In this document: in pieces, positions 6,948 to 48,619 of the stretch
How the letters are laid out: every line of letters starts with the position of its first letter
Position numbering within the stretch: the stretch's first letter is position 1
Assembly: GCA_045561025.1 (NCBI GenBank)
Contig: JBJKYM010000034.1
Span: 27,975 to 91,974, forward strand
Reading direction: 5' to 3'
DNA from: Candidatus Rariloculaceae bacterium
GTDB taxonomy: Bacteria; Pseudomonadota; Gammaproteobacteria; Steroidobacterales; Rariloculaceae
DNA length: 64,000 nt
Position numbers and translations under genes: made by a program
The notes under the pieces: generated by a model
Told to the model about the DNA's origin: nothing
Databases searched by the model: none
The model's input: only the letters and a program-made list of their open reading frames with translations

Positions 6948-7008
6948 AGCCGACCACCGTTCCTCGCGCTCATGCAGATGGGTTCTCGATCGCTCGTGAG
7001 ATAAGCCA

Positions 7009-7863: not shown

Positions 7864-7870
7864 TCTGGCA

Positions 7871-33432: not shown

Positions 33433-34887
33433 GTGCTGCCGGGCGGCTGGCTCGCCGCGCAGTCGCGGGCCGAAGCCGAGAATATGGCCTTGTTGGCGCA
33501 TCATCCGCTCGACGGTCGGCCGTCCTACACGCCGATGCCGCACCTCTACGGTGACCGCTGGATACTTTTCGCGGGTCATCACGCCGGCGAAGCGGTCAAC
33601 TCGCTGAACGGTGAGGTCGAGGGTAACGGTACCTGGGTACTTGATGTGACGGATCCGCGAAATCCGATCTATCTTTCATACATTCCCGCGCCGCCCTGGG
33701 AAGAGCATGGATCCATGTCTCTCGGGACCGGTGCGCAGCACGTTCAGGTTTGCGATGGCACAGAGCTGTCAGCAGGGGATCCTGACAAGGTTTATATGTT
33801 GCGCTCGCTTGGCAACGTGAGTCATGAGGTCTACGACGTTACCGACCCGAGTGCGCCGGAGTTTCTGGTTACTGTCGTCTGGACCGGCGATTCGCCACCG
33901 ATGGAGCCGTATGCCGACTTCTACGACACGAAAGGGACGCACAAGAACTGGTGGGATTGCGAGACCGGAGTCGCCTACGTCACTTCGAGTATTACCGGAT
34001 GGCGGAAGTGGCGAAATCTCCAGGCCTTCGATCTGAGTCGACCTGAGGAGCCAAAACATATCCGGGATTTCAGTCTGTCCGGCACAGAACCGACGGCATT
34101 AATACCTGCGGTTGAGGCACCAGGGGGCTACTCGGGGCTTCACCAGCCGACGATATTCGGCGATCGGATCTATCTTGCTTACGGTATGGATAGCGATGGC
34201 GTTATTCAGATTCTGGATCGAGACAAGTTCCTCAACGGAGATCCGAATTCGGATCAACCGTTCGCACCGACACCGGAAAACTTTCTCTATCCTGAGATTT
34301 CGCGGATCGACCTTCCAAGCTACTGGGGCGGTCATAGTGTGCATCCGATACTTGGAATGGAGATTCCCGACTACACCGATGACGAAACGCACAGCGTAAG
34401 AGATATTCTGGTCATCGTGTCCGAGGTCACAGCTAATGAGTGCGGGTACGCGCGCCATGCGACTTTTTTCGTCGACATCACCGAGGAAGACAAGCCGTTC
34501 GGGATTTCCTCGTTCCAGGTGCCTGAGGAAGAAGGGGGCTTCTGTAATCGCGGTGGAAGATTCGGGCCCCATGCCTCCAACGACTCGATGGAGCCCGTCT
34601 TCTACAAGAACACGCTGCTTCTTTCCTACTTCAATGCGGGCGTCCGGGCCGTCGATATTCGTGATCCGTTCAACCCGCGACAGATCGCGTACTACATTCC
34701 GGCAATTACGGAGAATACGGATCAACGCTGCGTTGAGGAAAATGGCGAGCGAGAATGTAAGGCCGCGATCCAGACGAACAACGTGAATTACGATGCGCGC
34801 GGAACTATCTATGCGCTGGATCGCGCGAATACCGGACTCCATATTCTGGAGCTGACGGGATCCGCGCGGGACGGAACCGGCCTGTAA
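33433..34887 (+). CDS. exported LVIVD-repeat beta-propeller-like protein (true start probably ATG 33378, out of frame by one G)
   Basis: Repeated xDVtDPxxP units (VLDVTDPRNP, VYDVTDPSAP, AFDLSRPEEP, AVDIRDPFNP, ..GLHILEL). The frame upstream of 33433 encodes a signal-peptide-like LWTAFLSLVLLVLPGGWLAAQS but contains no start codon. Confidence 0.7.
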   Translation: MLPGGWLAAQSRAEAENMALLAHHPLDGRPSYTPMPHLYGDRWILFAGHHAGEAVNSLNGEVEGNGTWVLDVTDPRNPIYLSYIPAPPWEEHGSMSLGTGAQHVQVCDGTELSAGDPDKVYMLRSLGNVSHEVYDVTDPSAPEFLVTVVWTGDSPPMEPYADFYDTKGTHKNWWDCETGVAYVTSSITGWRKWRNLQAFDLSRPEEPKHIRDFSLSGTEPTALIPAVEAPGGYSGLHQPTIFGDRIYLAYGMDSDGVIQILDRDKFLNGDPNSDQPFAPTPENFLYPEISRIDLPSYWGGHSVHPILGMEIPDYTDDETHSVRDILVIVSEVTANECGYARHATFFVDITEEDKPFGISSFQVPEEEGGFCNRGGRFGPHASNDSMEPVFYKNTLLLSYFNAGVRAVDIRDPFNPRQIAYYIPAITENTDQRCVEENGERECKAAIQTNNVNYDARGTIYALDRANTGLHILELTGSARDGTGL

Positions 34888-34928
34888 CCAGGCCGGACGA
34901 CAGTAATCAGGAAAACAAGGAAAACACC

Positions 34929-36215
34929 ATGACCAAACGATTGAATCACTACGCGACGACTTTCTGGAGCATCGTATTTACGTTACTGATGCTACCGCTT
35001 TCGCTGCAGGCGCAGACGTCCGCACCGTTCGCTGCGGTACCGGGTGAGCGCGGCGGCCAGGATATTACGGGCCCCTATGAAGTAGATCCCGACTGGCCGA
35101 AGGATATATCGACTCTTCCAGGACACGAGGGTTGGACCTGGGGAGCCGGGCAGAGCGTTTTCGCCGAGAGCCCCGATCGCGTTTACGTATTGCAGCGTGG
35201 TGAGTTACCCGTAGTTGAGCGACCGGAGCGACGCCCGCTTCATGATGTAGGCGACAGTATCTACTTCCCGATCGGCCGGTTGCCTTATCGCGATGCAACT
35301 GCATCGAGTTTACCCGCCAACGGTGGTGCAGGGAGCCTGGCTGAAACAGGCCTGGAGGTATGGGAGGCGAACGGTGGCCGAATGGGTGTCGACGCACGCT
35401 GGGAACACTGCATCCTCGTAATAAACGGTGAGGGTGAAATTATTGAGGAGTGGACGCAGTGGGACTCGATGATGCAGCGACCGCATTTCGTAGCGATCAA
35501 TCCCTACGATCCGGAGAAACATGTCTGGATAGTCGACGATCACAAGCACGTTATTCATAAGTTCACCAACGACGGTAGTGAGTTAGTCCAATCGATCGGT
35601 ACCTACGGTGAGCTGGGTGGTGACGAGACTCATTTCAATCGTCCGAGTTTCCTCGCCTGGTTTCCGGACAGCAGCTTCGTTGTGGCAGACGGCTATAACG
35701 GCAGCCGCGTCGTGAAGTTCGATGCGGACGGCAACTATTTGATGCAGTGGGGAGAGCCGGCCGAAAGAACGCGCAACGACCGGCGGCCAAACCATTTCTT
35801 CAATGTTCACGGCATTGCGATCGATCCGGAGACGAACAGGGTTTTCGTCAACGATCGTTACAATCAACGAGTTCAGATCTTCAGTGAAGATGGCGAGTAT
35901 CTTGATGAGTGGAGCATGGGTGAGCTGCCCTCCGATGTTCATCTCTTCAATATCTCGGCGGACGGTTACCTCTGGGCCGCCGATCGCGGTACGAACAAAA
36001 TTCTGAAGTACACACTGGACGGCGAATTTCTGTATTCCTGGGGTACCTGGGGTGATTTCCCGGGCGGAATGTGGGGCGTGCATGGAATGAGTGTCGACCA
36101 GGATGGAAACTTCTACATCGCTGAAGTCGACAACGGTGGCGTCCAGAAATACGTTCCGAGAGAGGGGGTAAATCCCGATTATCTCTACGGACAACCTGTC
36201 CGCGCCGCGTGGTAG
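34929..36215 (+). CDS. exported NHL-repeat six-bladed propeller, peptidyl-alpha-hydroxyglycine alpha-amidating lyase (PAL)-like, copy 1
   Basis: Signal peptide. NHL-type repeats (FVVADGYNGSRVVKFD.DGNYL, RVFVNDRYNQRVQIFSEDGEYL, LWAADRGTNKILKYTLDGEFL, FYIAEVDNGGVQKY). About two-thirds identical by eye to 39106-40368. Confidence 0.8.
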   Translation: MTKRLNHYATTFWSIVFTLLMLPLSLQAQTSAPFAAVPGERGGQDITGPYEVDPDWPKDISTLPGHEGWTWGAGQSVFAESPDRVYVLQRGELPVVERPERRPLHDVGDSIYFPIGRLPYRDATASSLPANGGAGSLAETGLEVWEANGGRMGVDARWEHCILVINGEGEIIEEWTQWDSMMQRPHFVAINPYDPEKHVWIVDDHKHVIHKFTNDGSELVQSIGTYGELGGDETHFNRPSFLAWFPDSSFVVADGYNGSRVVKFDADGNYLMQWGEPAERTRNDRRPNHFFNVHGIAIDPETNRVFVNDRYNQRVQIFSEDGEYLDEWSMGELPSDVHLFNISADGYLWAADRGTNKILKYTLDGEFLYSWGTWGDFPGGMWGVHGMSVDQDGNFYIAEVDNGGVQKYVPREGVNPDYLYGQPVRAAW

Positions 36216-36345
36216 TCGAGCGGTCATCCCGCTAGCACCTGACAGCCTGCGGAGCGGTCTCCATCCGGGGGGGGCTCCGGCACCTAAGTCCCCGTTTATT
36301 AAATAAATTTAACTCCGCTGATGAGTCATATTCGCTCCACAACCG

Positions 36346-36375
36346 TTGACGGCACAACGTTGGCACGGGGATACT
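36346..36375 (+). promoter_or_regulatory. candidate sigma70 promoter upstream of DUF6152 copy 1
   Basis: TTGACG (36346-36351), 18 nt, GATACT (36370-36375), within a 237-bp AT-richer gap. Sequence match only. Confidence 0.25.
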
Positions 36376-36452
36376 TGTGTGCATAAATAATTCAGGGAAT
36401 TCGGGGTGGCGAACAAAGTTTCTCGATCGACCGCGTCCGCTATGGAGATGGC

Positions 36453-36872
36453 ATGATCCGAGAGATGGTAAGAGTTTTTTTTCTTTCGACTTTGTTGTTC
36501 GCAGCGGGAAGCATAGCGTTCGCACACCATGGTGGAGCGGCCTATGACGGCAGTGCTAGCGCCACCGTGACGGGCGCCGTCACGAAGTTCGAATTCGTTA
36601 ATCCGCACGTCCTGATTTATATCGCCGTAACAGGTGATGACGGTGAAACCGTCGAGTGGTCCGGAGAGTTGACGAGCCCGAATCGTCTCGCGCGCATGGA
36701 ACGAGGATCCACGACGCCATGGAGTAAGGATATTCTCCAGCCAGGTGACGTCATTACGCTATCGGGAAATCCGGCAAGAACTGGAGCGCCGTCGTTGCGT
36801 CTGCAAACGGTAATCGATTCGAACGGCGAAGTGCTGGTCGGTGACGATGACGATGACGATGACGATGACTAA
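36453..36872 (+). CDS. DUF6152 family exported protein, copy 1, with 9-Asp C-terminal tail
   Basis: Signal peptide ending IAFA, then HHGGAAYD...VTGAVTKFEFVNPH...GD.ITLSG.P.R.G pattern as I recall for DUF6152. Ends in GDDDDDDDDD. Confidence 0.68.
   Translation: MIREMVRVFFLSTLLFAAGSIAFAHHGGAAYDGSASATVTGAVTKFEFVNPHVLIYIAVTGDDGETVEWSGELTSPNRLARMERGSTTPWSKDILQPGDVITLSGNPARTGAPSLRLQTVIDSNGEVLVGDDDDDDDDD
36843..36869 (+). repeat. (GACGAT)4-GAC simple-sequence repeat encoding poly-Asp
   Basis: gacgatgacgatgacgatgacgatgac lies immediately before the TAA at 36870. Confidence 0.95.
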
Positions 36873-36929
36873 GAAGTCGCCTGCTGTCTTGTGAATCGGG
36901 CTCGGCCCGAAACCTGAAGGACAACAACT

Positions 36930-37685
36930 ATGCTAACTCGTGTAATCGGTACGCTAGCTCTCGTATCGGGTTTGTTACTTGCTACTTCCGCCCTCCGAGC
37001 GCAGCCAGAAGGACATGGTGCTGATTTCTCGGGTGTATGGACGAATTTTTCGCCGGAGGCCACGCGATCCTTCGAGAACTCGGCCCTTCGGCCCGACCCG
37101 CCGCCGATGACCGAATGGGCACAGGAACGCTACGATCAGGCGAAGCCGACGTTCGGATCACGAAGCGTCCCGGTTCTCGAGACGAATGATCCCGTCTATG
37201 AGTGCTTTCGTCCGGGAACTCCCAGAATTTACATGCATCCGTTTCCAATGGAGATCGTCCAGACGCCGGGGCGGGTGCTAATGCTGTTTGAGTACGATCA
37301 TGCAGTGCGGCAGGTCTTTACTGACGGCCGCGAGCATCGTACCGATCTAGCGCCGATGTGGATGGGCGACTCCACGGGTCATTGGGAGGGCGACACGCTC
37401 GTCGTCGAAACGGTCAACTTCAACGACAAGACCTGGATAGATCGTGAGGGGGTACCTCACAGTGAGGAGCTGCGCGTTCTGGAACGCATCAGACTTGACG
37501 ATGACGGCAATCTGCTGATCGGGATCACGATTGAGGATCCGGTTGCCTTCACCGAAACATGGACAGGGCAGAGGCGCTACCGGCCGGTCGACTGGAATAT
37601 CGAAGAGTTCTCGTGTATGGATAATGTCAATTTCGAGGCGTTTGAAGACGAGATGCTCAACTACGATCCCGATGCGGCGAACTAG
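36930..37685 (+). CDS. exported protein of unknown family (paralog of 8641-9801)
   Basis: Signal peptide. Shared blocks include YECF.PGTPR, GHWEGDTLVVETVNFNDKTW and the C-terminal EF.C.DN. Confidence 0.6.
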   Translation: MLTRVIGTLALVSGLLLATSALRAQPEGHGADFSGVWTNFSPEATRSFENSALRPDPPPMTEWAQERYDQAKPTFGSRSVPVLETNDPVYECFRPGTPRIYMHPFPMEIVQTPGRVLMLFEYDHAVRQVFTDGREHRTDLAPMWMGDSTGHWEGDTLVVETVNFNDKTWIDREGVPHSEELRVLERIRLDDDGNLLIGITIEDPVAFTETWTGQRRYRPVDWNIEEFSCMDNVNFEAFEDEMLNYDPDAAN

Positions 37686-37825
37686 ATCGCCTGAAAGGAT
37701 TGAAAGCTATGCAGGGTGCGCGTATCTTGCATTAGGTAGCTACTAGTTACATCGAATAAATAGCCTATAAAAACAATAAGATATAGTTAAAATATAAAGT
37801 AAAAAATATGTTGGAGCCAGCCATC

Positions 37826-39085
37826 ATGAATCTCATTCCGTCCACCAACCATCCCAGGATTCTCATTGCCGCAGCGGCGAGTCTTGCGCTTGCGGGATGT
37901 GCTCCCGAGCCTGGGCCTCGGGCCTCCGTCGAGTCGGAGCCGGCCGCAGCGATGCCGATGCCAGCGGCCGCACCGTCGCCGGCAGCGGCTTCAGCCGAGG
38001 CTTCCGCTGCCTATCCGTCGGCCGAAATACCCGTCTTCACGACCGAGCATGTCGCGAGAAAAGGCTTCTATTACGCGGGTGGAGAATATGTCGGCGATCC
38101 GCCGATTATGGGTGGCCAGATGTACGTTGAGGTGTGGGAACCGGTTGAAGCCGTGCAGCCCTATCCACTCGTCATGTTCCACGGCAATGGTCAGACCGGG
38201 GTGGACTGGCTGCAGACGCCGGACGGCCGACCTGGCTGGGCGTACTACCTCGTTGAACAGGGCTATACGCTCTACATGGTCGACTACCCGGCGCGAGGGC
38301 GTTCTACCTACATCCCAGGCGGCGAGCATGGTGATCTGGGGATTCGTACCGTCGAGCAGTTGGAGGCGATCTGGACGAACGTCGGTGAGAAGGGCAACTT
38401 CCCGCTCAACGACAACCATACGCAATGGCCGGGCGGTGGACACCGCGGCGATCCGATCTTCGATAACTTTATCAAGACGCAGGTCCAGTTCGCGGGTCAG
38501 AGCACGACGATGGCGCGCTACGCGGCGATGGAGTTGCTGGACACAATTGGTCAGCCGGTCGTTCTGATTACCCATTCCCAGGGCGGTGGGGTTGGCTGGG
38601 GAGTCGCAGACGGCAGGCCGGATCTGGTCCGGGGAATCGTCACGATCGAACCGGGCGGACCGCAGATCGGTAATGTCAGTACGGCGGATGTTGCCTACTC
38701 AGGCCGGCCGGCGAATGCCTGGGGCCCTGTGAACTATCCGTTGACCTATGAGCCACCGGTTAGTGATCCGGAGGAACTCACGACCTATCTCGAAGCGGAG
38801 GGCGATCAGCCAGGCGAAGTACCCTGCTACCTCCAGGAAGAGCCTGCACGTCAGCTTGTGAATATGACGGAGATCCGTGTACTGGCATTGTCAGCGGATG
38901 GCACTTATCACCGGGTCTTCGACGGCTGTATTCCGAAATGGCTCAACCAGGCGGGCGTAGAGACAGATTTCGTCCGTTTGGAGGAAGTCGGCATCAGCGG
39001 CAATGGGCACATGATGATGCTCGAACTCAATAGCGACGACATTATCGAGTACATCGATAGTTGGATCCGAGAGAATATTCAGTAG
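37826..39085 (+). CDS. alpha/beta-hydrolase lipoprotein, copy 1
   Basis: Start at ATG 37826 gives the lipobox LALAGC. HGNGQTGVDWLQTPDGRPGWAYY, nucleophile elbow THSQGG, C-terminal GNGHMMMLE. Paralog of 40433-41581. Confidence 0.8.
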   Translation: MNLIPSTNHPRILIAAAASLALAGCAPEPGPRASVESEPAAAMPMPAAAPSPAAASAEASAAYPSAEIPVFTTEHVARKGFYYAGGEYVGDPPIMGGQMYVEVWEPVEAVQPYPLVMFHGNGQTGVDWLQTPDGRPGWAYYLVEQGYTLYMVDYPARGRSTYIPGGEHGDLGIRTVEQLEAIWTNVGEKGNFPLNDNHTQWPGGGHRGDPIFDNFIKTQVQFAGQSTTMARYAAMELLDTIGQPVVLITHSQGGGVGWGVADGRPDLVRGIVTIEPGGPQIGNVSTADVAYSGRPANAWGPVNYPLTYEPPVSDPEELTTYLEAEGDQPGEVPCYLQEEPARQLVNMTEIRVLALSADGTYHRVFDGCIPKWLNQAGVETDFVRLEEVGISGNGHMMMLELNSDDIIEYIDSWIRENIQ

Positions 39086-39105
39086 AAAAAGTTTGGAGAA
39101 CAGTT

Positions 39106-40368
39106 ATGCGTAGTCGTATACGAATGTTGGGTTGGTCAGCCGTTGGCGCCGCTGTCGTCGTGATCGCGAGCAATCAGATGGTCTCGGCGCAAAGCGCGGC
39201 CGTCGGCTTTTCAGCGGTACCGGGACAAAAGGGCGGCCAGGATATGTTCGGCCCTTATGACGTTGCTCCGAACTGGCCACAGGACCTCTCTGAGTTGCCA
39301 GGAAATGGGGCCTGGACGTATGGTGCGGGCCAGAGTGTATTCGCTGAGAGTCCTGATCGAATCTTTCTCCTGCACCGCGGCGAGTTGCCGAATATAGAGC
39401 GCCCCGGAGCAGAAGTTTCAGACCGTGGCCCCGCACTGTCTTTCCCGGTTGCGCAGCTACCGTTCCGTAACGCTTCGGTTGGTCCGCGTGCCAGTTTGCC
39501 GGGCGCACTAGACGGCGACGATACCGACCGCGGTATCCACGGCGTTGATCACAACTGGGCCCACTGCCTGGTTGTTGTTGACGGTGACGGAAATATCATT
39601 GAAGAGTGGACACAGTGGGACCATCTGTTTCGCCGTCCGCACTACGTAACCATCAATCCCTACGATCCCGAGAAGCACGTCTGGGTCGTCGATGACTTCC
39701 GGCACGCGATATTCAAGTTCACTAACGATGGTTCAAAGCTTGTTCAGACGATCGGTATCCCGAACGAGTCCGGCAACGATTCCACCCATTTTTTCCGACC
39801 GACGTTTATGGCATTTCTTCCTGATGCGATGTTCGTCGCGGACGGCTACGCCAATACGCGGGTGGTCAAGTTCGATCACGATGGAAACTATCTGATGACC
39901 TGGGGTGAGCCCGGTAATCCTCCGAACGAGACGCGTCCCGGCTACATGAACAATGTCCACGGCGTTGCAGTCGACCCGGAGACGAATCGCGTTTTCGTCA
40001 ATGATCGTGCGAATAACCGGGTTCAGGTTTTTACTGACGATGGCGAATTTCTGGATGAGTGGAGTTTCGGGCCCGAGCCGACGGATATTCATCTGTTCTA
40101 CATCGGTGCCGACAGAATCATGTGGGCTGCGGACCGTGCGACCAGCAAGATTCTGGGTTACGACCTCGACGGAAACTTCCTGTACTCCTGGGGTACGTTT
40201 GGTGACTTCCCCGGTGGCCAGTGGGGCGTGCACGGCATGAGCGTCGATCAGGACGGCAACTTCTATATTGCCGAGGTTGGTAACGGTCGTGTGCAGAAGT
40301 ACACGCCACGCGCCGGAGCGCGAGCTGAGACGATGGTTGGTAAGCCCGTCTACGCTGCCTGGGAGTAG
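39106..40368 (+). CDS. exported NHL-repeat PAL-like propeller, copy 2
   Basis: ATG 39106 has TGGAGA upstream (the track start 39061 overlaps the previous gene). Signal peptide. Long identical strings with copy 1 (SVFAESPDR, IIEEWTQWD, INPYDPEKHVW, ETNRVFVNDR, VHGMSVDQDGNFYIAEV). Confidence 0.8.
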   Translation: MRSRIRMLGWSAVGAAVVVIASNQMVSAQSAAVGFSAVPGQKGGQDMFGPYDVAPNWPQDLSELPGNGAWTYGAGQSVFAESPDRIFLLHRGELPNIERPGAEVSDRGPALSFPVAQLPFRNASVGPRASLPGALDGDDTDRGIHGVDHNWAHCLVVVDGDGNIIEEWTQWDHLFRRPHYVTINPYDPEKHVWVVDDFRHAIFKFTNDGSKLVQTIGIPNESGNDSTHFFRPTFMAFLPDAMFVADGYANTRVVKFDHDGNYLMTWGEPGNPPNETRPGYMNNVHGVAVDPETNRVFVNDRANNRVQVFTDDGEFLDEWSFGPEPTDIHLFYIGADRIMWAADRATSKILGYDLDGNFLYSWGTFGDFPGGQWGVHGMSVDQDGNFYIAEVGNGRVQKYTPRAGARAETMVGKPVYAAWE

Positions 40369-40432
40369 TAAACGAGTTTTTAGCTGCGCGATCGCCTGCG
40401 GAGCCAGGTGACCCGCGTACTCGGAGAGTGTG

Positions 40433-41581
40433 ATGACCAAACTTCAAAAAATATCGATAACGTCTATTCTGGTGGTGATGGCAGCCGGCGTCTCGGCGCA
40501 AACTCCACCGTCGACGATTCCGATGGTCTCGATGGACAACGTGGCAAGTCACGGTTTCTTCTATGCGGGCGGCGAGTATGTCGGCGAGCCCGGCAAGGAG
40601 ACGATGGGCGGCGCAATGTATGTCGAAGTCCTCGTGCCGAAAGAGATACTGCATCCCTACCCGGTTGTATTCCTGCATGGTGCCGGCCAGACAGGCGTCG
40701 ATTATCTGCAGACACCCGATGGTCGCCCTGGCTGGGCGTACAATTTCGTCGACATGGGCTACGTCGTCTATGTGCAGGATTTTCCTGCGCGTGGCCGATC
40801 TCAGTATGTGCCCGGGGTAGACGGTGACATCAATATCCGTAACGCACCCGGAATCGAGCAGATATTTACGGCCTCTGCAGCAACGGCTAGTTTTCCGCAG
40901 GCCTCGAAGCACACGCAGTGGCCGGGAACAGGGCGTATGGGCGACCCCATCGCCGATGCATTCATGAAGTCGCAGGTACAGTTTATCGGCGGACCCCAGG
41001 CGCGACTTACAATTGATGCCAATGTCGCTCTGCTCGACATGATCGGTACCCCGGTGATCCTGTTCACTCACTCGCAGGGTGGCTGGTTCGGCTGGAATAT
41101 TGCCGATGAGCGTCCGGATCTCGTGCGCGTAATCGTGACCTCTGAACCTGCTGCGCCGCCGATTCGCGGTGTCGATACGACCAACGTGGTTTATCGGGAA
41201 AGTGGTGGTCTGGCCTGGGGCGTCGGCAATACGCCCATTACCTATGATCCGCCTGTCAGTGATCCGTCAGAATTGCAGGTTGAACTTCAGGCCGAAGCGG
41301 AAGGCCCGGACCTCGTGCCCTGCTATCGGCAGGTCGAGCCGGCCAGACAGCTGGTCAACCTGACTGATATTCCGGTGCTGTTTCTTAACGGCGAGGGTGG
41401 TTATCACCGGATTTTCGATCACTGTCTCGCGAACTGGCTGAACCAGGCCGGCGTTGAGACGGAGTACGTACGAATGGAGGACGTTGGCCTGACCGGCAAC
41501 GGTCATATGATGATGCTCGAGCTCAACAGCAAAGAGATCGCCGACTACGTTCACGGCTGGCTCGAGGACAATATTCTCTAG
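40433..41581 (+). CDS. exported alpha/beta-hydrolase, copy 2
   Basis: Signal peptide. HGAGQTGVDYLQTPDGRPGWAYN, THSQGG, GNGHMMMLELNS. GGAGAG RBS. Confidence 0.8.
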   Translation: MTKLQKISITSILVVMAAGVSAQTPPSTIPMVSMDNVASHGFFYAGGEYVGEPGKETMGGAMYVEVLVPKEILHPYPVVFLHGAGQTGVDYLQTPDGRPGWAYNFVDMGYVVYVQDFPARGRSQYVPGVDGDINIRNAPGIEQIFTASAATASFPQASKHTQWPGTGRMGDPIADAFMKSQVQFIGGPQARLTIDANVALLDMIGTPVILFTHSQGGWFGWNIADERPDLVRVIVTSEPAAPPIRGVDTTNVVYRESGGLAWGVGNTPITYDPPVSDPSELQVELQAEAEGPDLVPCYRQVEPARQLVNLTDIPVLFLNGEGGYHRIFDHCLANWLNQAGVETEYVRMEDVGLTGNGHMMMLELNSKEIADYVHGWLEDNIL

Positions 41582-41667
41582 CTGCAGGCGCAGGTCTCGC
41601 CGCTGGGGGAACGGCGGGGAGAATCAGCCTCGATGTATGGCGTAAGTGATTGGAGGAGATGCAGCAG

Positions 41668-42075
41668 ATGCAGCAGATGCGGTATATGAAATTAGGAAAC
41701 TCATTGGTTGTTCTGGTGTCGATATTTTCGATGGCCTTGTCCGCCTGGGCGCATCATGGAGACGCCGGACGTTACAACGACGAGGTCACGACAGTAGTCG
41801 GTGTCGTCGCGCAGTGGCGCCTGATTAATCCGCATTCAGAGTTGATCCTCGATGTTGAGGACGAATCGGGAAGACTCGTTCGCTGGCGTGGAGAACTCGC
41901 TAACCCGACCGCCCTGGCCAATCGTCATGGCTGGGATCAGGAAACATTTCAGCCGGGCGATAGAATCTCGATGACGGGCAGGGCGCTGAAGAACGGTTCG
42001 CCCGCGATGACGTTGTCGGAGGGTGCTGTACTCGTAGACGCTGACTCCGGTGAAGAGCTCTACCGCGGGAATTAG
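41668..42075 (+). CDS. DUF6152 family exported protein, copy 2
   Basis: Several in-frame ATGs (41659, 41668, 41677, 41686) follow GGAGGAG, so the start is uncertain. Signal peptide ending SAWA, then HHGDAGRY..VVAQWRLINPH..GDRISMTG. Confidence 0.65.
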   Translation: MQQMRYMKLGNSLVVLVSIFSMALSAWAHHGDAGRYNDEVTTVVGVVAQWRLINPHSELILDVEDESGRLVRWRGELANPTALANRHGWDQETFQPGDRISMTGRALKNGSPAMTLSEGAVLVDADSGEELYRGN

Positions 42076-42087
42076 AGAGTAAAGATC

Positions 42088-43920
42088 ATGACAAGTACCG
42101 GCTGCTGCTTTCGAATAGTTCTGCCTGTCATTTGCGCGATCGGCTTAACTGCATGCTCGGCGCCACCGCCTGCACCGTCGCTGTCGATGGGTTTTGGCTT
42201 AAAGGAGATTCAGTTCAGCTGGCCTGTCGTGGAGGAGGCTGATCATTATCGCTTGCTGGCCAGTCTCGATGGCTCGGCGGTGTTCTCGGCCGTTGGCGGA
42301 AATCTCTCAGCTATGACGACGAGTACAACCGTGCCGGTCGCAGTGCATCTCTATCCCTGGGAGACAGCCCGCTACGTTCTGGAGGCATGTAACGCTGACG
42401 GCTGTACCCGCTCGGCTGAGATCAGTCCGATAGACGGCATCCTGGATACCATCGGTTACGTTAAGGCGTCGAACTCAGACGTTGACGATCAGTTCGGGGG
42501 CGGCAGCGTCATTTACGGTCTCTCCGCGGCCATTAGTCGCGACGGCAATACGATGGCTGTCACGTCGATCTTCGAAGATAGCGCGGCGACCGGAATCGAT
42601 GGCGATCAGACTGATAACTCGGCGCTGGACGCCGGATCCGTCTATGTATTTCAGCGCGACGACGACGGCTGGGCTCAACAGGCCTATGTCAAAGCTTCGA
42701 ATGCCGAATCCAGCGACCAGTTCGGCTACTCCGTGGCATTAAGCGGTGACGGCGACACGCTCGCCGTTGGTGCAAATCTTGAAGCCAGTAGCGCAACCGG
42801 AATAAACGGTGACCAAAGCGACAACTCGGCGCCTGGCGCCGGCGCCGTCTATGTCTTCGCACGTGCGAGTGGCGAGTGGAGCCAACAGGCCTATGTAAAG
42901 GCGTCGAACTCCGACGGCGGTGATGTATTCGGCTATCAGGTTGCTCTGAACTTTGACGGCGACACGCTGGTGGTGACAGCTCAGGGTGAGGATAGCGCCT
43001 CTCCCGGCATCGACCTTGATCAGATCAACAACGATGCCGGTGGCGCCGGCGCAGCGTATGTATTCACGCGTGATGGCGGCACATGGTCGCAGCAGTCGTA
43101 TCTCAAGTCGGCCAATCCGGAGGTGAATGATCTCTTCGGCAGTTCCGTCGCTATGAGCGATGACGGCAACACGATACTTGTGGGTGCGCTCGATGAGGAC
43201 GGCGGGCAGGCGACCATCAACGGCGATGAATCGGACAACTCCGCGCGCGGCTCTGGTGCTGCATATGTCTTCGTCCGCAACGGTAGTCGATGGTCGCAAC
43301 AAGGCTATATCAAGGGTTCGAATACGCAGGCTGCGGACGCGTTCGGCGCGACGGTCGCGATGAGCGCTGACGGTAATACGCTGGCCGTCGGAGCGCCCGA
43401 CGAAAACAACACGTCGACCGGCGCCCATGCCGATCTCGGGCACCGCGTGGGCTTCGATCCGCGGACTGATCACTCTTTCGGCTCGGCCTACATATTCGCC
43501 AGGCAGAATGGGAACTGGACGGAGCAGGCCTATATCAAGCCTTCTCATCTCGGGCAGTTCGATCAGTTCGGTACCCGGGTCGCGCTGAGTGGCGACGGCA
43601 ATATCCTTGCCGTAGGCGTCCCTCTTGAAGACAGTCCGGCAGTCGGATTGAACGGTAGTCGCGAGAACGATGAGTCCGGTGGGACCGAGTTCGGCGCCGT
43701 CTATCTATACACGCGCGAGAATGGCCGCTGGTCTGATCACAACTATGTGAAGGCTCCCAATGCCGGTGTCTACGACGAGTTTGGATCCGTTATCGCGCTC
43801 AATGCAGATGGGTCGACAATGATCGTCGGTGCTCGTTTCGAAGATTCTGCAGCGACGGGTGTCGATGGGGATCAGGGCCACGAGTATGCCAGAGACGCCG
43901 GGGCGATCTACGTTTTCTAG
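42088..43920 (+). CDS. lipoprotein with N-terminal Ig/FN3-like region and seven FG-GAP/integrin-alpha-like repeats
   Basis: Lipobox GLTAC. Seven ~70-aa repeats: Y[VIL]KasN....D.FG.sVAlS.DGnTLAVGA..EDS.ATGi.GDq.DNSa..aGAvYVF.R....W.QQa. Confidence 0.75.
   Translation: MTSTGCCFRIVLPVICAIGLTACSAPPPAPSLSMGFGLKEIQFSWPVVEEADHYRLLASLDGSAVFSAVGGNLSAMTTSTTVPVAVHLYPWETARYVLEACNADGCTRSAEISPIDGILDTIGYVKASNSDVDDQFGGGSVIYGLSAAISRDGNTMAVTSIFEDSAATGIDGDQTDNSALDAGSVYVFQRDDDGWAQQAYVKASNAESSDQFGYSVALSGDGDTLAVGANLEASSATGINGDQSDNSAPGAGAVYVFARASGEWSQQAYVKASNSDGGDVFGYQVALNFDGDTLVVTAQGEDSASPGIDLDQINNDAGGAGAAYVFTRDGGTWSQQSYLKSANPEVNDLFGSSVAMSDDGNTILVGALDEDGGQATINGDESDNSARGSGAAYVFVRNGSRWSQQGYIKGSNTQAADAFGATVAMSADGNTLAVGAPDENNTSTGAHADLGHRVGFDPRTDHSFGSAYIFARQNGNWTEQAYIKPSHLGQFDQFGTRVALSGDGNILAVGVPLEDSPAVGLNGSRENDESGGTEFGAVYLYTRENGRWSDHNYVKAPNAGVYDEFGSVIALNADGSTMIVGARFEDSAATGVDGDQGHEYARDAGAIYVF
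42457..43917 (+). repeat. seven in-frame tandem coding repeats (~200-230 nt each)
   Basis: Periodicity is seen in the translation; repeat 1 starts at Tyr124 (nt 42457). These are divergent protein repeats, not identical DNA repeats. Confidence 0.8.
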
Positions 43921-44117
43921 TCGGCAGTGACAGCGGCTCTCTCGAGGAGCAGCTTGCCGATCTGGGCTTCGAGCGGTTCCGCCTGGTTATCGGAAAATTC
44001 GAACTCCTCGCCGTGCTCAGGAATCACGCGTGGCGAACCTCGTTCGCTGCCCGATAGCAGGCTGATCCACTCTTTACTTTCGCCGACTGCGACGCGCATC
44101 CGCCGAATTCTGGTCAT
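43917..44117 (-). CDS. hypothetical small protein
   Basis: 66 aa from the internal ATG 44117 (MTRIRRMRVAVGESKEW..). CTAG stop overlap with the convergent FG-GAP gene. No family recognised. Confidence 0.3.
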   Translation of the reverse strand: MTRIRRMRVAVGESKEWISLLSGSERGSPRVIPEHGEEFEFSDNQAEPLEAQIGKLLLERAAVTAD

Positions 44118-44334
44118 CGATTCGTCCCCGGTACTAGGCTGCTGATCGATTATCTTGGCCAGGGCGGAGCGCTGCTGTGATGTATTTTGCAAGACCGTGA
44201 GAGAGTCTTGCGGTTGCGACGGGTCGAGTTCAGATCAACTATCTGGATCTATGCCAGGCTGCTACACTTCTTTCACCGGCATCCGATTTATTGGTGGGAG
44301 GACATCAGGAGCCGGCAATACAGGCAGAAGTTGG

Positions 44335-44670
44335 ATGCGAAAACAGGAAAACACCCGGCCGATAATTATTCGTTACGTCATCGCCTTCATTGGGGCGGTC
44401 TCCATAACGATAGGGTTGCTCTTGTTCATGAACGATCTGATCAGCCGGTTCTTCGAGCGGGATGCGATTCAATACTTCGCGATCACCGACTATATCCCCG
44501 CACCGGATCGCGGCCGGCAATTGCCTGACGCACCGCCGGCACCGTCCGCTGCCCCCGACGCGCCGGCGCTTGAGCTCGCGCCTGAAGAGGAGATCGTGAT
44601 GGACGGTCCGGTTATCGAGCCCGACCTGACGCTTCCGGCAACCGAACAGGCACCGAATCTCGACGAGTAA
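44335..44670 (+). CDS. membrane-anchored Pro/Ala-rich protein (TonB N-terminus-like, no C-terminal domain)
   Basis: From ATG 44335: one TM helix (YVIAFIGAVSITIGLLLFM), then PAPDRGRQLPDAPPAPSAAPDAPALELAPEEE. The upstream part of the track ORF does not look coding. Confidence 0.4.
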   Translation: MRKQENTRPIIIRYVIAFIGAVSITIGLLLFMNDLISRFFERDAIQYFAITDYIPAPDRGRQLPDAPPAPSAAPDAPALELAPEEEIVMDGPVIEPDLTLPATEQAPNLDE

Positions 44671-44679
44671 CTACTTCTT

Positions 44680-45198
44680 TCAGGCTGAGAGATTGCCGTC
44701 CGCGCCAAGCTCCAGCCCGGTTTCTCGCGCTCGGGAGAGCACCGATTTCGCCCAGTCAACATGACCGGCGTCGTCGCCGCCCAGAATCGCCATCAGATAG
44801 GCATGCTCATCGCTGATGTTTCGAAAGCCTCTCATCACGCCGACCGGTACCGAGACGAGATCCATGGGTCCGAGTTCAGTTTCGCCGTCGCCGTCCTCGC
44901 CCCAGTAAACAATCCATCGACCGGTTAATGCCACGAACACCTCGACGGTAGGGTGGGAGTGCAGCGCCGCTCCTTTTTGCGGGTCGGCCCCTATATAGGT
45001 GACGTTGAACCCTTCAACTGCGGTGACGGAAGGTTCGAGCTCCGGGTCTTCCGTTACGCCACGACCGATTACATTGTAGATATCCCGGACGTGCTCCGGG
45101 ATGCGAGTATCGACGAAAGCCTGCGGGCTGGCACGGAGTTCGCTGAACCGTGCAGTTCGTGCTTCCATTTCTTCGACCAGTTCGGCTTTGTTGGGCAT
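44680..45198 (-). CDS. cupin domain protein
   Basis: From ATG 45198 (GAGGT RBS). ..GAALHSHPTVEVFVALTGRWIVYWG....LGPMDLVSVPVGVMRGFRN fits the cupin two-motif pattern. Confidence 0.7.
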   Translation of the reverse strand: MPNKAELVEEMEARTARFSELRASPQAFVDTRIPEHVRDIYNVIGRGVTEDPELEPSVTAVEGFNVTYIGADPQKGAALHSHPTVEVFVALTGRWIVYWGEDGDGETELGPMDLVSVPVGVMRGFRNISDEHAYLMAILGGDDAGHVDWAKSVLSRARETGLELGADGNLSA

Positions 45199-45775
45199 CG
45201 TCGTGACCTCGGGATAATTACTTTGACCTGAATCGTACCTACTTGGCCGTCCCATTTCCTCTCGACTCGTCTTCCCTTCGGTGCGCTCGGTCTGCCACTA
45301 TTTGAGCTGCAGCCAATTGCGGGTCGACGTCCCTCCCTCATAACACGTAGCGGGAACCATGCGTAAATTACACTTAGCGTTAGCCACGAGAGATATGGAT
45401 CGGTCAATCCTCGACTAAAGTACTCAACTGAAGACTGAGCCTTGTGTCGTTGTTTCCGGCGAGTACGCCTTGTGGCGTACTGAGATCGTCAATCTGTCGG
45501 TCAGGCTCGATCCCGACTGCGAGCCAGGTGCGTTGAGGCATCTTGGCTGGGAAGATCCTGAAGCAGCCGAATTCTCAACGAGTACCGACGCGAACGGAAT
45601 CGTCTGGGAACACTTCTCGGCACAGCAGCAGGCCGATGAGATAGAAGAATTTTTTCCCGGCACCGACTACCGCCCGCCAGATTCGTAGCGTGTAGAGCTG
45701 ACGGGACTGGGACAATCTCACGCGTTTGCGTAAACTCGGTATATAGAGACGGCGTCGCGAAATATTGGGGACGAT

Positions 45776-47053
45776 ATGATCGGTAAGACTTCTGCAGTTG
45801 TGATTGTTCGTAGATCTCTTGTTTGTCTCGGGGTTGCGATTGTCGCGTTCTACGGCACGGCGCAGGCCCAGCCGTCTCTGACCTACTTCGCGGATCCGAG
45901 CTGGCCGAAGACTCTGCCGAATAACTGGAAGCTCGGCGGTATCTCCGGCCTGACGATCGACGCTGACGACAACATCTGGGTCCATAATCGTCCGAACGAT
46001 CTCGCCGATATGGAGCTCCTGGCCGAGCTCTCGCCGCCGGTCTCGGAATGCTGTGTTCGCGCACCTTCGATGATTCAACTCGATGGGTCCGGGAATGTAC
46101 TCGCATCATTCGATGCGCCACAGGGTCACGGCATGGATGTCGATAACGACGGCTTTATCTATCTCGGGCAAGATACCGTTCGCAAATACAACTCGGTTAC
46201 TGGAGATCTCGTGGCGGAGGTTGAGCGAACGCCAGAAAGGGAAGGTGGGGGACAGGTCGGCCTGCCGCCACCGGCTGAAATTATCCTGGGCAAGGGCTCT
46301 CTGGAGCACGCTGACGTGTTTATGCCGTCGACGCCCAGGGAACCAGCCGACGTCGCGCGTCGAGCAGCGGCAGCCGTCGAGTTCCGCGCGAAGTATCCTC
46401 CGGATACGCCGATGATCGTCGGCGGTCTGGAAGAAATTCGCATTATCGAAGCGGACAATGAAATATTTGTCGCCGATAACTATCTCGGTGGCCGGGTACT
46501 GGTCTTCGATCTCGAAACGTTCGAATTCAAGCGTGGCTGGGGTGCGTATGGAAAGCCGCTGGCTGAGATCAGTACGGACGATGCAGATCATAGATACACA
46601 GCTAACGGTCCTATGCCGAGAGACTTCGCCGGTCACCTGACGCTGAACATCTCCAACGACGGGCTGGTCTATGCGGCAGATCGAAGAGCGAATCGAATCC
46701 ACGTGACGACGAAGGACGGTCAGTTTCTGAAGGAGTTCGTGCTCGCACCCAGTACCGGCGGTGGTGGATCAGCCGGTGGAGTGGCGTTTTCTGCCGATGA
46801 AGATCAGCGTTATCTTTTTATCTCGGACCGGATGAATGGTAAGGTCTGGTTCCTGAATCGCGACGACGGTGAGGTTGTCGGCTCCGTCGGGAGCATGGGC
46901 GAGAACGGCGGGCAATTCTTCGGCCTGCATATGATTGCAGTCGACTCGCAGGGCTTCATTTATACCGGTGAAGTCGATTCTTTTCGCGTGCAGAGATTCG
47001 TACCGGCTTACAGTCTCAGAGGCCGTCTCCTTCAGCAGCTGGCCGAGCTATAA
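45776..47053 (+). CDS. exported NHL-repeat beta-propeller protein (third, divergent)
   Basis: Signal peptide. NHL-like units (IFVADNYLGGRVLVFDLETF, LVYAADRRANRIHVTTKDGQFL, YLFISDRMNGKVWFLNRDDGEV, FIYTGEVDSFRVQRF). Confidence 0.7.
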   Translation: MIGKTSAVVIVRRSLVCLGVAIVAFYGTAQAQPSLTYFADPSWPKTLPNNWKLGGISGLTIDADDNIWVHNRPNDLADMELLAELSPPVSECCVRAPSMIQLDGSGNVLASFDAPQGHGMDVDNDGFIYLGQDTVRKYNSVTGDLVAEVERTPEREGGGQVGLPPPAEIILGKGSLEHADVFMPSTPREPADVARRAAAAVEFRAKYPPDTPMIVGGLEEIRIIEADNEIFVADNYLGGRVLVFDLETFEFKRGWGAYGKPLAEISTDDADHRYTANGPMPRDFAGHLTLNISNDGLVYAADRRANRIHVTTKDGQFLKEFVLAPSTGGGGSAGGVAFSADEDQRYLFISDRMNGKVWFLNRDDGEVVGSVGSMGENGGQFFGLHMIAVDSQGFIYTGEVDSFRVQRFVPAYSLRGRLLQQLAEL

Positions 47054-47105
47054 TTTGAGATCAACGAATTGGCGCGCTTGTTGAAGCGCCCTGGTGGAGA
47101 ACATA

Positions 47106-47879
47106 GTGAGAAAAGAATTCCTGTCTGTCACCCTGCTGCTGACGATAGCAGCATGCTCGGCAGCGCACGCACAGCATGGATTGGAAGGTGGAACACCCAT
47201 GACGTTCTTCGTTGCCAGCAAGCCAATCGGTGATGGCGGCAACCTCGGCGGTCTGGCCGGAGCAGACGCACACTGCCAGGCTCTCGCGGAGAATGTGGGT
47301 GCCGGAGACCGAACGTGGCAGGCCTACTTAAGCACGCAGGATCGCCCCGGGGTTCCCGCCGTGAACGCCAGGGATCGCATCGGCTCAGGACCGTGGCACA
47401 ACTTTCACGGTGTATTGATCGCTCGGGATGTTGAACATCTGCAAGGCGACACGATTGAGCTCGCCAGAATGGGCAATAATTTGAATAAGCAGACGGGGCT
47501 GACCGAGAAAGGGCAGATCGTTCCCGGACTGAACGACTACAAGGATTCGCGGGATCGCGACTGGGAGTATGTCCAGACGACGCCCTACAGCAATCGTCAC
47601 GAGATGCTGACCGGCTCACAACTCAACGGAACCGCTTTCCCGCCGGATATGGATTACACCTGTAACAACTGGACCAGTAACGAAGATCCTGATTTCGAAG
47701 CGAACGGACGCCGAATGGGTGCCGCGGTCGACAAGCCGAACGTCCAGATCGGTTTTCCGGACCGCAATGGTGGCGGCGATGGCTCGTGGAACTCGTCCCA
47801 CGGCACACGTGGCTGTAGTCAGACCGCGCTCGTGATGACGCACGGTGTCGGCATGTTCTACTGCTTCGCAATCGATTGA
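47106..47879 (+). CDS. exported DUF1554 / endostatin-like (C-type-lectin-fold) protein, copy 1
   Basis: GTG 47106 with GGTGGAG 6 nt upstream; possible lipobox IAAC. FFVASKPIGDGGNLGGLAGADAHCQALA...W.AYLST...ARDRIG.GPW...TCNNWTS...GC....FYCFAID parallels the endostatin/DUF1554 layout (from memory). Confidence 0.6.
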   Translation: MRKEFLSVTLLLTIAACSAAHAQHGLEGGTPMTFFVASKPIGDGGNLGGLAGADAHCQALAENVGAGDRTWQAYLSTQDRPGVPAVNARDRIGSGPWHNFHGVLIARDVEHLQGDTIELARMGNNLNKQTGLTEKGQIVPGLNDYKDSRDRDWEYVQTTPYSNRHEMLTGSQLNGTAFPPDMDYTCNNWTSNEDPDFEANGRRMGAAVDKPNVQIGFPDRNGGGDGSWNSSHGTRGCSQTALVMTHGVGMFYCFAID

Positions 47880-47887
47880 GCGGGACT

Positions 47888-48619
47888 ATGCGAGTAACAA
47901 TGAAAATTAGATCTATTGGACTGATATTGGCACTGGCTTTCTGTGGTGCCGCCTTCGCGCAGGACCCAGGATTGCCGGATTCGGAAGATATTCCATCTAG
48001 CCTGATGACGTTTTTCGTGACGAGCGAGCCGATAGGCGATGGCGGCAACCTCGGCGGACTGGAAGGTGCCGACGCGCACTGCCAGTTGCTGGCTGCTGCG
48101 GTCGGCGCGGGAGATAAAACCTGGCGTGCCTACCTCAGCACGCAGGCGAGACCGGGACAGCCGGCGGTGAACGCGCGGGATCGTATCGGTGAGGGGCCGT
48201 GGTATCACTCGAAGGCGAAAATTCTGGACTACCTGCAACGTCGACTAAACAGGCCGATCATCTCGTCGGAAATTCACGGCGACACGCTTGAAGAAGCGCA
48301 GCGTGGAAGTAATCTGACGAAAGAGTTCGCACTTACGGAACATGGCGAGATCGTTAACGGTATCGGCGACCCTCTTCCGAGGCGTCATTCCATTCTGGCC
48401 GGGTCCCGGCCAGATGGTCGTGCATTCACCGGAAGCGAAGACCGTACCTGCAACAACTGGACGAGCAACAGTGAGGGGGCGGCGCAGGTAGGTCACTCTG
48501 ACCGCGTCGGTAACGGCAATATCTCCTGGAACTCGTCGCACACGACGACCGGCTGCAGCCAGGAAGAGCTGGTCAGCTGGGGCGGGGTTGGGCTGTTTTA
48601 CTGCTTCGCGATTGACTAG
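47888..48619 (+). CDS. exported DUF1554 / endostatin-like protein, copy 2
   Basis: Tandem paralog with the same Cys framework (ADAHCQ, TCNNWTS, GCS, FYCFAID). The start could be ATG 47888 or 47900. Confidence 0.6.
   Translation: MRVTMKIRSIGLILALAFCGAAFAQDPGLPDSEDIPSSLMTFFVTSEPIGDGGNLGGLEGADAHCQLLAAAVGAGDKTWRAYLSTQARPGQPAVNARDRIGEGPWYHSKAKILDYLQRRLNRPIISSEIHGDTLEEAQRGSNLTKEFALTEHGEIVNGIGDPLPRRHSILAGSRPDGRAFTGSEDRTCNNWTSNSEGAAQVGHSDRVGNGNISWNSSHTTTGCSQEELVSWGGVGLFYCFAID

Follow-up and report, generated by a model that had tools for sequence, protein, structure and literature searches.

A His-His Pair at the Predicted Mature N-Terminus of DUF6152 Proteins: a Candidate Metal Site on an Exported OB-Fold Module with a Downstream or Fused Partner

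The stretch analysed here (referred to as the window) comprises 64,000 nt of a Candidatus Rariloculaceae bacterium of the Gammaproteobacteria (assembly GCA_045561025.1, contig JBJKYM010000034.1, positions 27,975 to 91,974, forward strand) and encodes two proteins of the DUF6152 family, termed copy 1 and copy 2. Both carry a His-His dipeptide directly behind a predicted signal peptide. This dipeptide ranks with the best-conserved residues in the entire family and is not a chance occurrence. Moreover, DUF6152 is a module whose partner is encoded directly downstream or fused to it, an arrangement that is newly recognised here. We propose, at a confidence somewhat short of even, that the N-terminal His-His, the His of a conserved NPH motif and usually Glu48 form a metal site and that the module serves the adjacent or fused partner.

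According to this proposal, signal peptidase I would cut after a conserved Ala and thereby turn His-His into the first two residues of an exported module of about 110 residues, which is predicted to adopt the oligonucleotide/oligosaccharide-binding fold (OB-fold). In the numbering of the mature protein, His1, His2, His28 of NPH and usually Glu48 would jointly coordinate a single divalent transition-metal ion in a mononuclear site, with the free amino group of His1 as a likely ligand and the invariant Trp45 as a second-sphere residue beside the site. Cu(II) would be the most likely occupant, Zn(II) the next. The module would then either provide its periplasmic partner with the metal centre or hand the metal over to it.

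DUF6152 Copies in the Window

The two copies and the residues in question are located as follows; a slash marks a predicted cleavage site throughout.

36453-36872, + strand: open reading frame (ORF) of DUF6152 copy 1, 139 residues, starting MIREMVRVFFLSTLLFAAGSIAFAHHGGAAYD and ending GDDDDDDDDD before the stop codon
36453-36524, + strand: predicted Sec signal peptide of copy 1, 24 residues, MIREMVRVFFLSTLLFAAGSIAFA, with A-F-A at -3 to -1
36525-36869, + strand: predicted mature copy 1, 115 residues, OB-fold in the AlphaFold2 model; Pfam PF19649, E 1.6e-21
36525-36533, + strand: His25-His26-Gly27 (mature residues 1-3), proposed N-terminal metal ligands, from family conservation
36600-36608, + strand: Asn50-Pro51-His52 (mature residues 26-28), turn between beta1 and beta2, with a candidate third His ligand, from conservation
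36657-36668, + strand: Trp69-Ser-Gly-Glu72 on beta3, candidate second-sphere Trp and carboxylate ligand, from conservation
36843-36869, + strand: poly-Asp tail D131-D139, a repeat of variable length, (GACGAT)4GAC
41668-42075, + strand: DUF6152 copy 2, 135 residues from ATG 41668, signal peptide ending SAWA, then HHGDAGRY
41752-41760, + strand: His-His-Gly of copy 2 (His-His at 41752-41757)
41827-41835, + strand: NPH of copy 2
41884-41895, + strand: WRGE of copy 2

Both copies match the Pfam family DUF6152 (PF19649) far above its gathering threshold of 27 bits, copy 1 with 76.7 bits and copy 2 with 66.4 bits (E 2.6e-18), and identical proteins at NCBI are named 'DUF6152 family protein'. No match to NCBIfam was found for either copy, and a Pfam scan of both revealed no other family at E up to 0.01. 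Despite an identity of only approximately 31%, both copies retain HHG, NPH exactly 25 residues further on, and W-x-G-E. The first-pass annotation, made from the nucleotide sequence and its translations, had placed two paralogues here with IAFA/HHGG and SAWA/HHGD at their predicted processing sites and nine Asp residues at the C-terminus of copy 1, and the ORFs and Pfam scores bear this out.

Around its predicted cleavage site copy 1 reads MIREMVRVFFLSTLLFAAGSIAFA/HHGGAAYD, and its His25-His26 are encoded by CAC CAT at 36525-36530. The frame of copy 2 is open from TTG 41650 to 42075 and reads ...SAWAHHGDAGRY. The ATG at 41668 lies approximately 10 nt past a GGAGGAG Shine-Dalgarno-like run, and the product starting there is the NCBI protein P0121 with 135 residues.

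Conservation of His-His and Companion Residues

In the 191 close homologues that reach the N-terminal region, the dipeptide located 25 residues before NPH is His-His in 190 cases, the following residue is Gly in all 191, and NPH always follows His1 at a distance of 25 residues. When 1.84 billion cluster representatives were searched with a profile, 12,320 DUF6152 clusters were obtained at E up to 0.001; the best 148 of these, with no pair more than 50% identical, were used for residue counts. Among these representatives the first His is present in 138 of 139 and the second in 140 of 140, the Pro and the His of NPH are both found in 148 of 148, and the same applies to Trp69 (148/148), followed by Glu72 with 131 of 148. 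Position 3 is occupied by Gly (103), Ser (30) or Ala (5). The few representatives that lack His-His have truncated or frameshifted N-termini. Conservation across homologues had been named beforehand as a check on the His-His idea, and the dipeptide passes it in each of these sets as well as in the following one.

For a view of the genomic context, 80 loci were fetched from GTDB species representatives (Gammaproteobacteria, Acidobacteriota, Acidimicrobiia, Verrucomicrobiia) by the pattern AHHG[GD]A[AG][YR][YD]. Due to the bias introduced by this pattern, the central copies of the loci were left out of the His-His count. The 73 further copies in these loci, mostly outside the fetch pattern, have His-His in 73, Pro-His in 73, Trp in 70 and Glu in 63 cases; central and secondary copies were split by a coordinate rule, and in loci with a pattern match off position 8001 the pattern-selected copy may sit among the 73 'secondary' ones. 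Two proteins from the search of the representatives contain DUF6152 in tandem, P0222 (220 residues) and P0284 (386 residues), and in both of them the internal domain is degenerate: in P0222 the second domain retains DPH but lacks His-His, and in P0284 it retains an internal EHHS but carries KPR instead of NPH.

Signal Peptide and Predicted Mature N-Terminus

The cleavage site was inferred from the -3/-1 rule together with conservation. Ala occupies position -1 in 127 of the 135 representatives (94%), and position -3 is small or aliphatic. A hydrophobic core (best 10-residue hydropathy of at least 1.8) is found in 130 of 135 representatives, a basic n-region is situated upstream of His-His, and the signal-peptide length from start codon to His-His has its mode at 24 residues. 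The close homologues agree with the representatives in these features. Conservation starts exactly at His1, and upstream of it everything is variable except for the Ala at -1. Signal peptidase very likely cuts directly before His-His, as A-x-A/HH behind a standard signal peptide supports His as residue 1 of the mature protein. A cut at another place had been declared fatal to the idea in advance; all of the sequence evidence agrees on this bond.

An uncleaved anchor or a cut elsewhere would leave His-His internal and would make the supposed N-terminus an artefact. Leu at -3 in 40 of 135 representatives, which is less typical than Ala, and an alternative A-A-G/S site five residues upstream in copy 1 could be taken in this sense. 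On the other hand, the onset of conservation at His1 with a single constant Ala before it, as well as the standard n-h-c architecture and length of the upstream segment, speak for processing at His-His, and we regard the artefact as extremely unlikely.

Predicted Fold

The AlphaFold2 model of mature copy 1, based on 83 aligned sequences, has a mean predicted local distance difference test score (pLDDT) of 80.4 and a predicted template modelling score (pTM) of 0.75. DSSP assigns strands to residues 13-25, 28-36, 42-49, 76-84, and 90-98 and a helix to residues 52-60. This order, beta1-beta2-beta3-helix-beta4-beta5, is that of a five-stranded OB-fold barrel. In Foldseek the model matches many OB-fold proteins with a probability of 1.00 and template modelling (TM) scores of approximately 0.5, the best matches among PDB structures being the single-stranded DNA-binding protein SSB, PriB, and the anticodon-binding OB domain of lysyl-tRNA synthetase (LysRS). 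Judged by the model, DUF6152 is a generic OB-fold. At the level of PDB sequences, a single-sequence search reached chance level only (best E 0.06) and a profile search returned no match.

Mean-field direct coupling analysis (DCA) of 420 sequences (effective number Meff 207) recovered the beta1-beta2, beta2-beta3, and beta4-beta5 registers independently of the model, and additionally gave a coupling between Tyr7 and Asp70. In the model, beta3 carries Trp45 and Glu48, and NPH is part of the turn between beta1 and beta2. The face of an OB-fold that carries the beta1-beta2 turn and beta3 is a common ligand face. A hairpin of residues 1-12 with beta1, which would place His1 beside His28, was considered as well; it was not supported by DCA and was dropped as evidence.

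Partner Proteins and Gene Pairing

The genes directly downstream of the two copies encode the following proteins.

36930-37685, + strand: partner of copy 1, secreted, 251 residues, without Pfam family, predicted beta-barrel of the fatty-acid-binding protein (FABP)/calycin-like type
42088-43920, + strand: partner of copy 2, FG-GAP repeat protein of 610 residues with lipobox L-T-A-C; Pfam FG-GAP_2, E 1.2e-39

In the 80 loci, a calycin-like partner is situated within 1 kb downstream on the same strand for 65 of 128 DUF6152 domains, and conversely DUF6152 lies upstream of 67 of 92 calycin-like partner ORFs. The partner gene is also found downstream of DUF6152 in unrelated contigs. Furthermore, 22 same-frame fusions of DUF6152 and partner were observed, which are not independent events; DUF6152 comes first in all 22, with ...A/HH after the signal peptide, and the reverse order does not occur (0). 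Natural fusions are represented by two ORFs of locus L001 (1745-2788 and 9316-10395) and by protein P0227 (E 3.9e-99 to the partner profile).

The partner of copy 1 has no match in Pfam or NCBIfam. Its family comprises 1,548 relatives, and the 120 of them that were listed are all without a Pfam domain and named at most 'hypothetical protein'. The model of this partner (pLDDT 74.9) resembles calycin barrels of the FABP, cellular retinol-binding protein (CRBP) and NanoLuc type; among PDB sequences, the best hit of a single-sequence search had E 0.12, and a profile search gave none. Conserved in the partner family are the pair Cys92/Cys229, Arg127, Glu185, and Asp203, whereas its histidines are not. 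A further protein related to this family is encoded in the window at 8641-9801 (386 residues, no Pfam match). Its domain at residues ~201-373 matches the partner profile with E 1e-18 and is preceded by an N-terminal extension of 190 residues; the protein has neither a DUF6152 domain nor His-His. Thus, the partner family also exists independently of DUF6152 in this genome.

Solo DUF6152 copies are mostly of the copy 2 type, and in 38 loci an FG-GAP protein of ~550 residues is encoded directly downstream. The same holds for a solo copy in L005, the locus of another Rariloculaceae metagenome-assembled genome (MAG), and the arrangement in the window matches, with the FG-GAP gene directly after copy 2. 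The residues following His-His track the type of partner: HHGDAGRY occurs with FG-GAP proteins, HHG(G)AAYD with separate barrels, and HH[SAG][VF]... in fusions, with the reservation that central copies are pattern-biased in this sample and that HHGDAGRY was also seen independently of it. The FG-GAP partner of copy 2 begins (42088-42160) with MTSTGCCFRIVLPVICAIGLTAC/S, which represents a lipoprotein lipobox. Because of this predicted lipid attachment of its partner, the copy 2 module may act at the membrane surface.

Comparison with Known Systems

In a histidine brace, by definition, an N-terminal His contributes its NH2 group and its pi-N, and another His completes the site (PMC10952591). With the proteins of this type (the lytic polysaccharide monooxygenases (LPMOs) AA9-AA17, CopC, the CuB site of PmoB, PmoF PCuAC, and Bim1/X325) DUF6152 shares a predicted exposed and strictly conserved His1, and it has a second invariant His elsewhere that would be available as third nitrogen ligand. 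Candidates for the second His, which in a brace supplies the tau-N of a T-shaped N3 geometry, are H2 and the invariant H28 of NPH. In contrast to the immunoglobulin-like or cupredoxin-like sandwich of the brace proteins, DUF6152 is predicted to be an OB-fold, and an invariant His at residue 2 is not a feature of known braces. Structural kinship with LPMOs, CopC, YcnI or PmoB was rejected, given the OB-fold and the lack of any relation in Pfam and PDB-profile searches. The first-pass suggestion of a histidine brace in DUF6152 is therefore retained in part: His-His is indeed conserved after the predicted signal peptide, whereas the OB-fold speaks against a relationship to the LPMO, CopC, PmoB or YcnI proteins.

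YcnI (DUF1775) is a precedent with a monohistidine brace: its conserved His, predicted as first residue from signal-peptide cleavage, turned out to bind Cu(II) along with a Glu and a Trp (PMC8424229). His1, Glu48, and Trp45 of DUF6152 are conserved as well and correspond in kind to the N-terminal His, the Glu and the nearby Trp used by YcnI (PMC8424229). YcnI has a cupredoxin fold, whereas DUF6152 combines an OB-fold with two more His residues that are invariant. Only ~60% of DUF1775 sequences retain the YcnI triad (PMC8424229), as compared to more than 99% for His-His in DUF6152. YcnI is encoded in a copper operon (ycnKJI), whereas for DUF6152 no copper-handling genes were found among the 25 most widely shared neighbour gene groups or the scanned window ORFs.

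CusF and SilF, periplasmic chaperones for Cu(I)/Ag(I), have been described as the only OB-fold proteins with metal ion binding as their sole function (PMC10656224), and their metal site on the beta2/beta3 face includes a His and a capping Trp (PMC10656224). Like DUF6152 they are small periplasmic OB-fold proteins. DUF6152 differs by the lack of Met ligands, in place of which hard His/Glu ligands would be available, by a helix of the SSB type between beta3 and beta4, and by its location beside partner genes instead of a CusCBA pump. Homology to CusF was tried and rejected: hhalign, run after validation of the CusF sequence against 2vb2, gave a probability of 1.8%, conserved Met residues are absent at the positions equivalent to its His-Met-Met(-Trp) site for Cu(I)/Ag(I), and CusF is outside the top 50 Foldseek matches.

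Short copper-binding tags offer another comparison. The amino-terminal Cu(II)- and Ni(II)-binding (ATCUN) motif, NH2-X-X-His, resembles the predicted N-terminus of DUF6152 in having a free amino group with a His close by. It requires His at position 3, where DUF6152 has Gly, Ser or Ala, and was discarded. The NH2-X-His motif is known from peptide chemistry to bind copper, and His2 of DUF6152 formally matches it. Both motifs are unstructured tags, whereas DUF6152 adds invariant residues in a folded domain. With respect to architecture only, NlpE (CutF) is similar, as an envelope protein in which a calycin/lipocalin-type barrel is combined with an OB-fold. NlpE is an outer-membrane lipoprotein with the lipocalin-like domain first, followed by the OB-fold, and carries a CXXC motif. 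Compared to the fusions described above, the domain order is reversed and CXXC takes the place of the N-terminal His; sequence similarity was not found. In the literature searched, no mention was found of NlpE with OB-fold and lipocalin, of DUF6152, or of a histidine brace together with an OB-fold.

The Proposed Metal Site and Its Alternatives

That His-His ligates some metal appears likely; participation of the N-terminal amine is possible, but on the doubtful side of even. An N-terminal metal site is suggested because residue +1 and Ala -1 are extremely conserved, because the 25-residue spacing to NPH is fixed, because the ligand inventory equals the His/Glu/Trp of YcnI plus extra His residues, because DUF6152 is obligatorily N-terminal in fusions, and because His-His or Pro-His has decayed in the internal domains of P0222 and P0284. 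Copper is the first choice as occupant in view of the N-terminal-His precedents, of the order in which divalent metals are preferred by such sites, and of the cytochromes and quinoproteins encoded nearby. In accordance with the Irving-Williams series, an exposed periplasmic N-terminal His site would bind Cu(II) most tightly. Copper, zinc, nickel, and iron are all compatible with the present evidence, of which we prefer copper.

Several points weigh against an N-terminal copper site. Residues 1-3 have pLDDT values below 50 in the AlphaFold2 model, so that no pre-formed brace geometry can be claimed, and the DCA couplings with the invariant His residues are artefacts, since invariant columns are uninformative. 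Genes of the cop, cus, sco or multicopper-oxidase kind are missing from the 25 neighbour gene groups that recur in the largest numbers of loci, the real ones among which were assigned by Pfam or motif, and the window ORFs that were scanned contain no copper-handling genes. The missing copper genes nearby are a real weakness of the copper reading. Three His and one Glu are also a classic ligand set for Zn, Ni, and Fe that needs no N-terminal amine. Finally, the N-terminal position in the fusions, which as mentioned are not independent of each other, may in part be due to the requirement of a signal peptide and to an inherited domain order; an OB-fold normally begins at its first strand.

These objections lead directly to a site formed by side chains only, in which three His and one carboxylate would bind Zn(II), Ni(II) or Fe(II) for a structural or Lewis-acid catalytic purpose, the amine would not be a ligand, and the site would be N-terminal merely because the domain starts there. 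The conserved H1, H2, H28, and E48 form a 3-His-1-Glu motif as expected for such a site, the lack of copper genes among recurrent neighbours and scanned window ORFs and the flexibly modelled N-terminus are consistent with it, and the internal second domain of P0284 retains an internal His-His. However, an invariant residue +1 together with Ala -1 in 94% would be surprising if the new N-terminus played no part, the internal domains of the tandem proteins degenerate, DUF6152 is the first domain in 22 of 22 fusions, and the Irving-Williams series, as established knowledge, favours Cu(II) at an exposed N-terminal His. Taken together, a site made of side chains only seems unlikely, though not negligible. 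The His-His pair might also be unrelated to metals and act as general acid/base or as a docking or ligand contact, e.g., by insertion into the calycin barrel or the propeller or by contacting an anionic or haem-like ligand. Such a role would be in line with the tight gene pairing and fusion, with the co-variation of the octapeptide after the cleavage site with partner type, with the binding of small ligands by calycin folds, and again with the flexible N-terminus. Two adjacent His with a third invariant His and a Glu are nevertheless a typical metal-ligand inventory, and His-His is constant with two structurally unrelated partners, to which an intrinsic site fits better; we consider a metal-free role distinctly unlikely.

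As a homeostasis chaperone resembling CusF or CopC, DUF6152 would buffer or traffic metal for resistance or uptake instead of serving the downstream partner. DUF6152 would be suited to this task as a small exported protein with conserved His/Trp/Glu and an OB-fold as in CusF and SilF, and genes for outer-membrane (OM) beta-barrel/TonB-dependent-receptor-like proteins are situated near DUF6152 in about 8-9 loci. This has to be set against the hhalign probability of 1.8% to CusF, the absence of Met ligands, the many paralogues per genome or locus (up to five in 16 kb), unlike single-copy homeostasis chaperones, and the absence of efflux pump, P-type ATPase or CopD-type genes among the recurrent neighbours, all of which makes the chaperone very unlikely. 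An N-terminal metal site that serves the adjacent or fused partner remains our preferred reading, with the reserve stated at the outset. Its most far-reaching version, which we regard as a long shot, is that DUF6152 and its partner constitute an unrecognised class of extracytoplasmic copper enzymes. A brace-type copper centre on an OB-fold, present as subunit or N-terminal domain, would oxidise small or recalcitrant organic compounds held by the partner, and would be fed by neighbouring c-type cytochromes; many paralogous copies of the pair would have arisen in Acidobacteriota of soils and Gammaproteobacteria of marine sediments.

The Poly-Asp Tail

The nine Asp residues of copy 1 had been put forward as another potential cation-binding feature. 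Among the closest relatives (70-100% identical) the tail varies from D2 to D9 (D9, D8, D7, D5, and D2 were found), it is absent elsewhere, and the bulk of the subfamily ends in GGD, GDD, GGE or GGN. A role as conserved cation-binding feature of the family was rejected on these grounds. The length differences among near-identical metagenomic relatives suggest replication slippage, and thus the sequence points to a slippage-prone hexanucleotide repeat that is variable at the strain level. The tail may attract cations weakly, yet not as a conserved part of the system.

Genomic Neighbourhood

Copy 1 is surrounded by genes for further secreted proteins, each with a paralogue in the window.

34929-36215, + strand: secreted NHL-repeat beta-propeller upstream of copy 1 (paralogue at 39061-40368)
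37808-39085, + strand: secreted alpha/beta hydrolase (paralogue at 40430-41581)

NHL propellers recur in 24 of the fetched loci, and the alpha/beta hydrolase cassette is also present in L005. Further recurrent neighbours are dihaem cytochromes c (10 loci), cytochromes c of the reaction-centre type (9 loci), and pyrroloquinoline quinone (PQQ) dehydrogenases (9 loci), besides alpha/beta hydrolases, LVIVD propellers, OM beta-barrel/TonB-dependent-receptor-like proteins, amidases, and molybdenum hydroxylase. The nearby cytochromes c and PQQ dehydrogenases fit a redox setting. In several Gammaproteobacteria a divergently oriented gene for a dihaem c-type cytochrome is located directly upstream of the DUF6152 and FG-GAP pair (L034, L038, L044, L048, L056, L057, L082, and L083, at ~6500-7870 on the - strand), which hints at electron transfer to this pair. 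Copy 2 in the window has no adjacent dihaem c-type cytochrome gene.

Locus L001 (ERZ25069711 contig, 16.4 kb) contains five DUF6152 domains within 16 kb, two with separate partners and three fused, and shows a strong local expansion of DUF6152 paralogues. Its neighbouring genes encode a TonB-dependent receptor, arylsulfotransferase-like proteins, an amidohydrolase, and a cytochrome c.

In the window, both copies are part of an island of genes for signal-peptide-bearing proteins and lipoproteins (33433-48619), most of which are without functional annotation. The island comprises a 484-residue protein without Pfam match, three NHL-type/beta-propeller-repeat proteins, two alpha/beta hydrolases, the FG-GAP protein, a cupin, and DUF1554-like proteins, and is flanked by housekeeping genes, namely hflXKC-purA-mltD upstream and genes for a major facilitator superfamily (MFS) protein and RNase R downstream. 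Except for the 484-residue protein gene and the first NHL propeller, much of the island is found in the same order in L005, beginning at mltD and reaching at least as far as the second DUF1554-like gene, with which the fetched locus ends. The cassette at 34929-41581 looks duplicated (NHL propellers at 34929-36215 and 39061-40368, hydrolases at 37808-39085 and 40430-41581), and each set of NHL and hydrolase genes adjoins one DUF6152 copy. Due to an overlap of 25 nt between the TTG start at 39061 and the end of the preceding gene, the real start of this NHL gene is probably situated further downstream. Across 33.2-44.8 kb, promoter and terminator scans scored about as often as in shuffled sequence, and hence no operon boundaries are claimed.

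Significance

To our knowledge, N-terminal-His metal sites (LPMOs, CopC, YcnI, PmoB) have so far all been found on beta-sandwich folds, and each of them opened a field. What would be new here is N-terminal-His metal chemistry on an OB-fold, in the form of a detachable module with two unrelated partners. The sequence signal is unusually clean and the family is very large; the chemistry is what we infer from them. If a metal is indeed bound through the processed His-His, N-terminal-His chemistry would be placed on a new scaffold, and a first functional handle would be gained on the DUF6152 family with its ~12,300 sequence clusters, as well as on the less annotated partner family, which has 1,548 relatives and no Pfam model. 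Beyond these two families, it would provide a handle on the groups of functionally uncharacterised secreted proteins encoded together in abundant bacteria of soils and sediments, most of which are uncultured.

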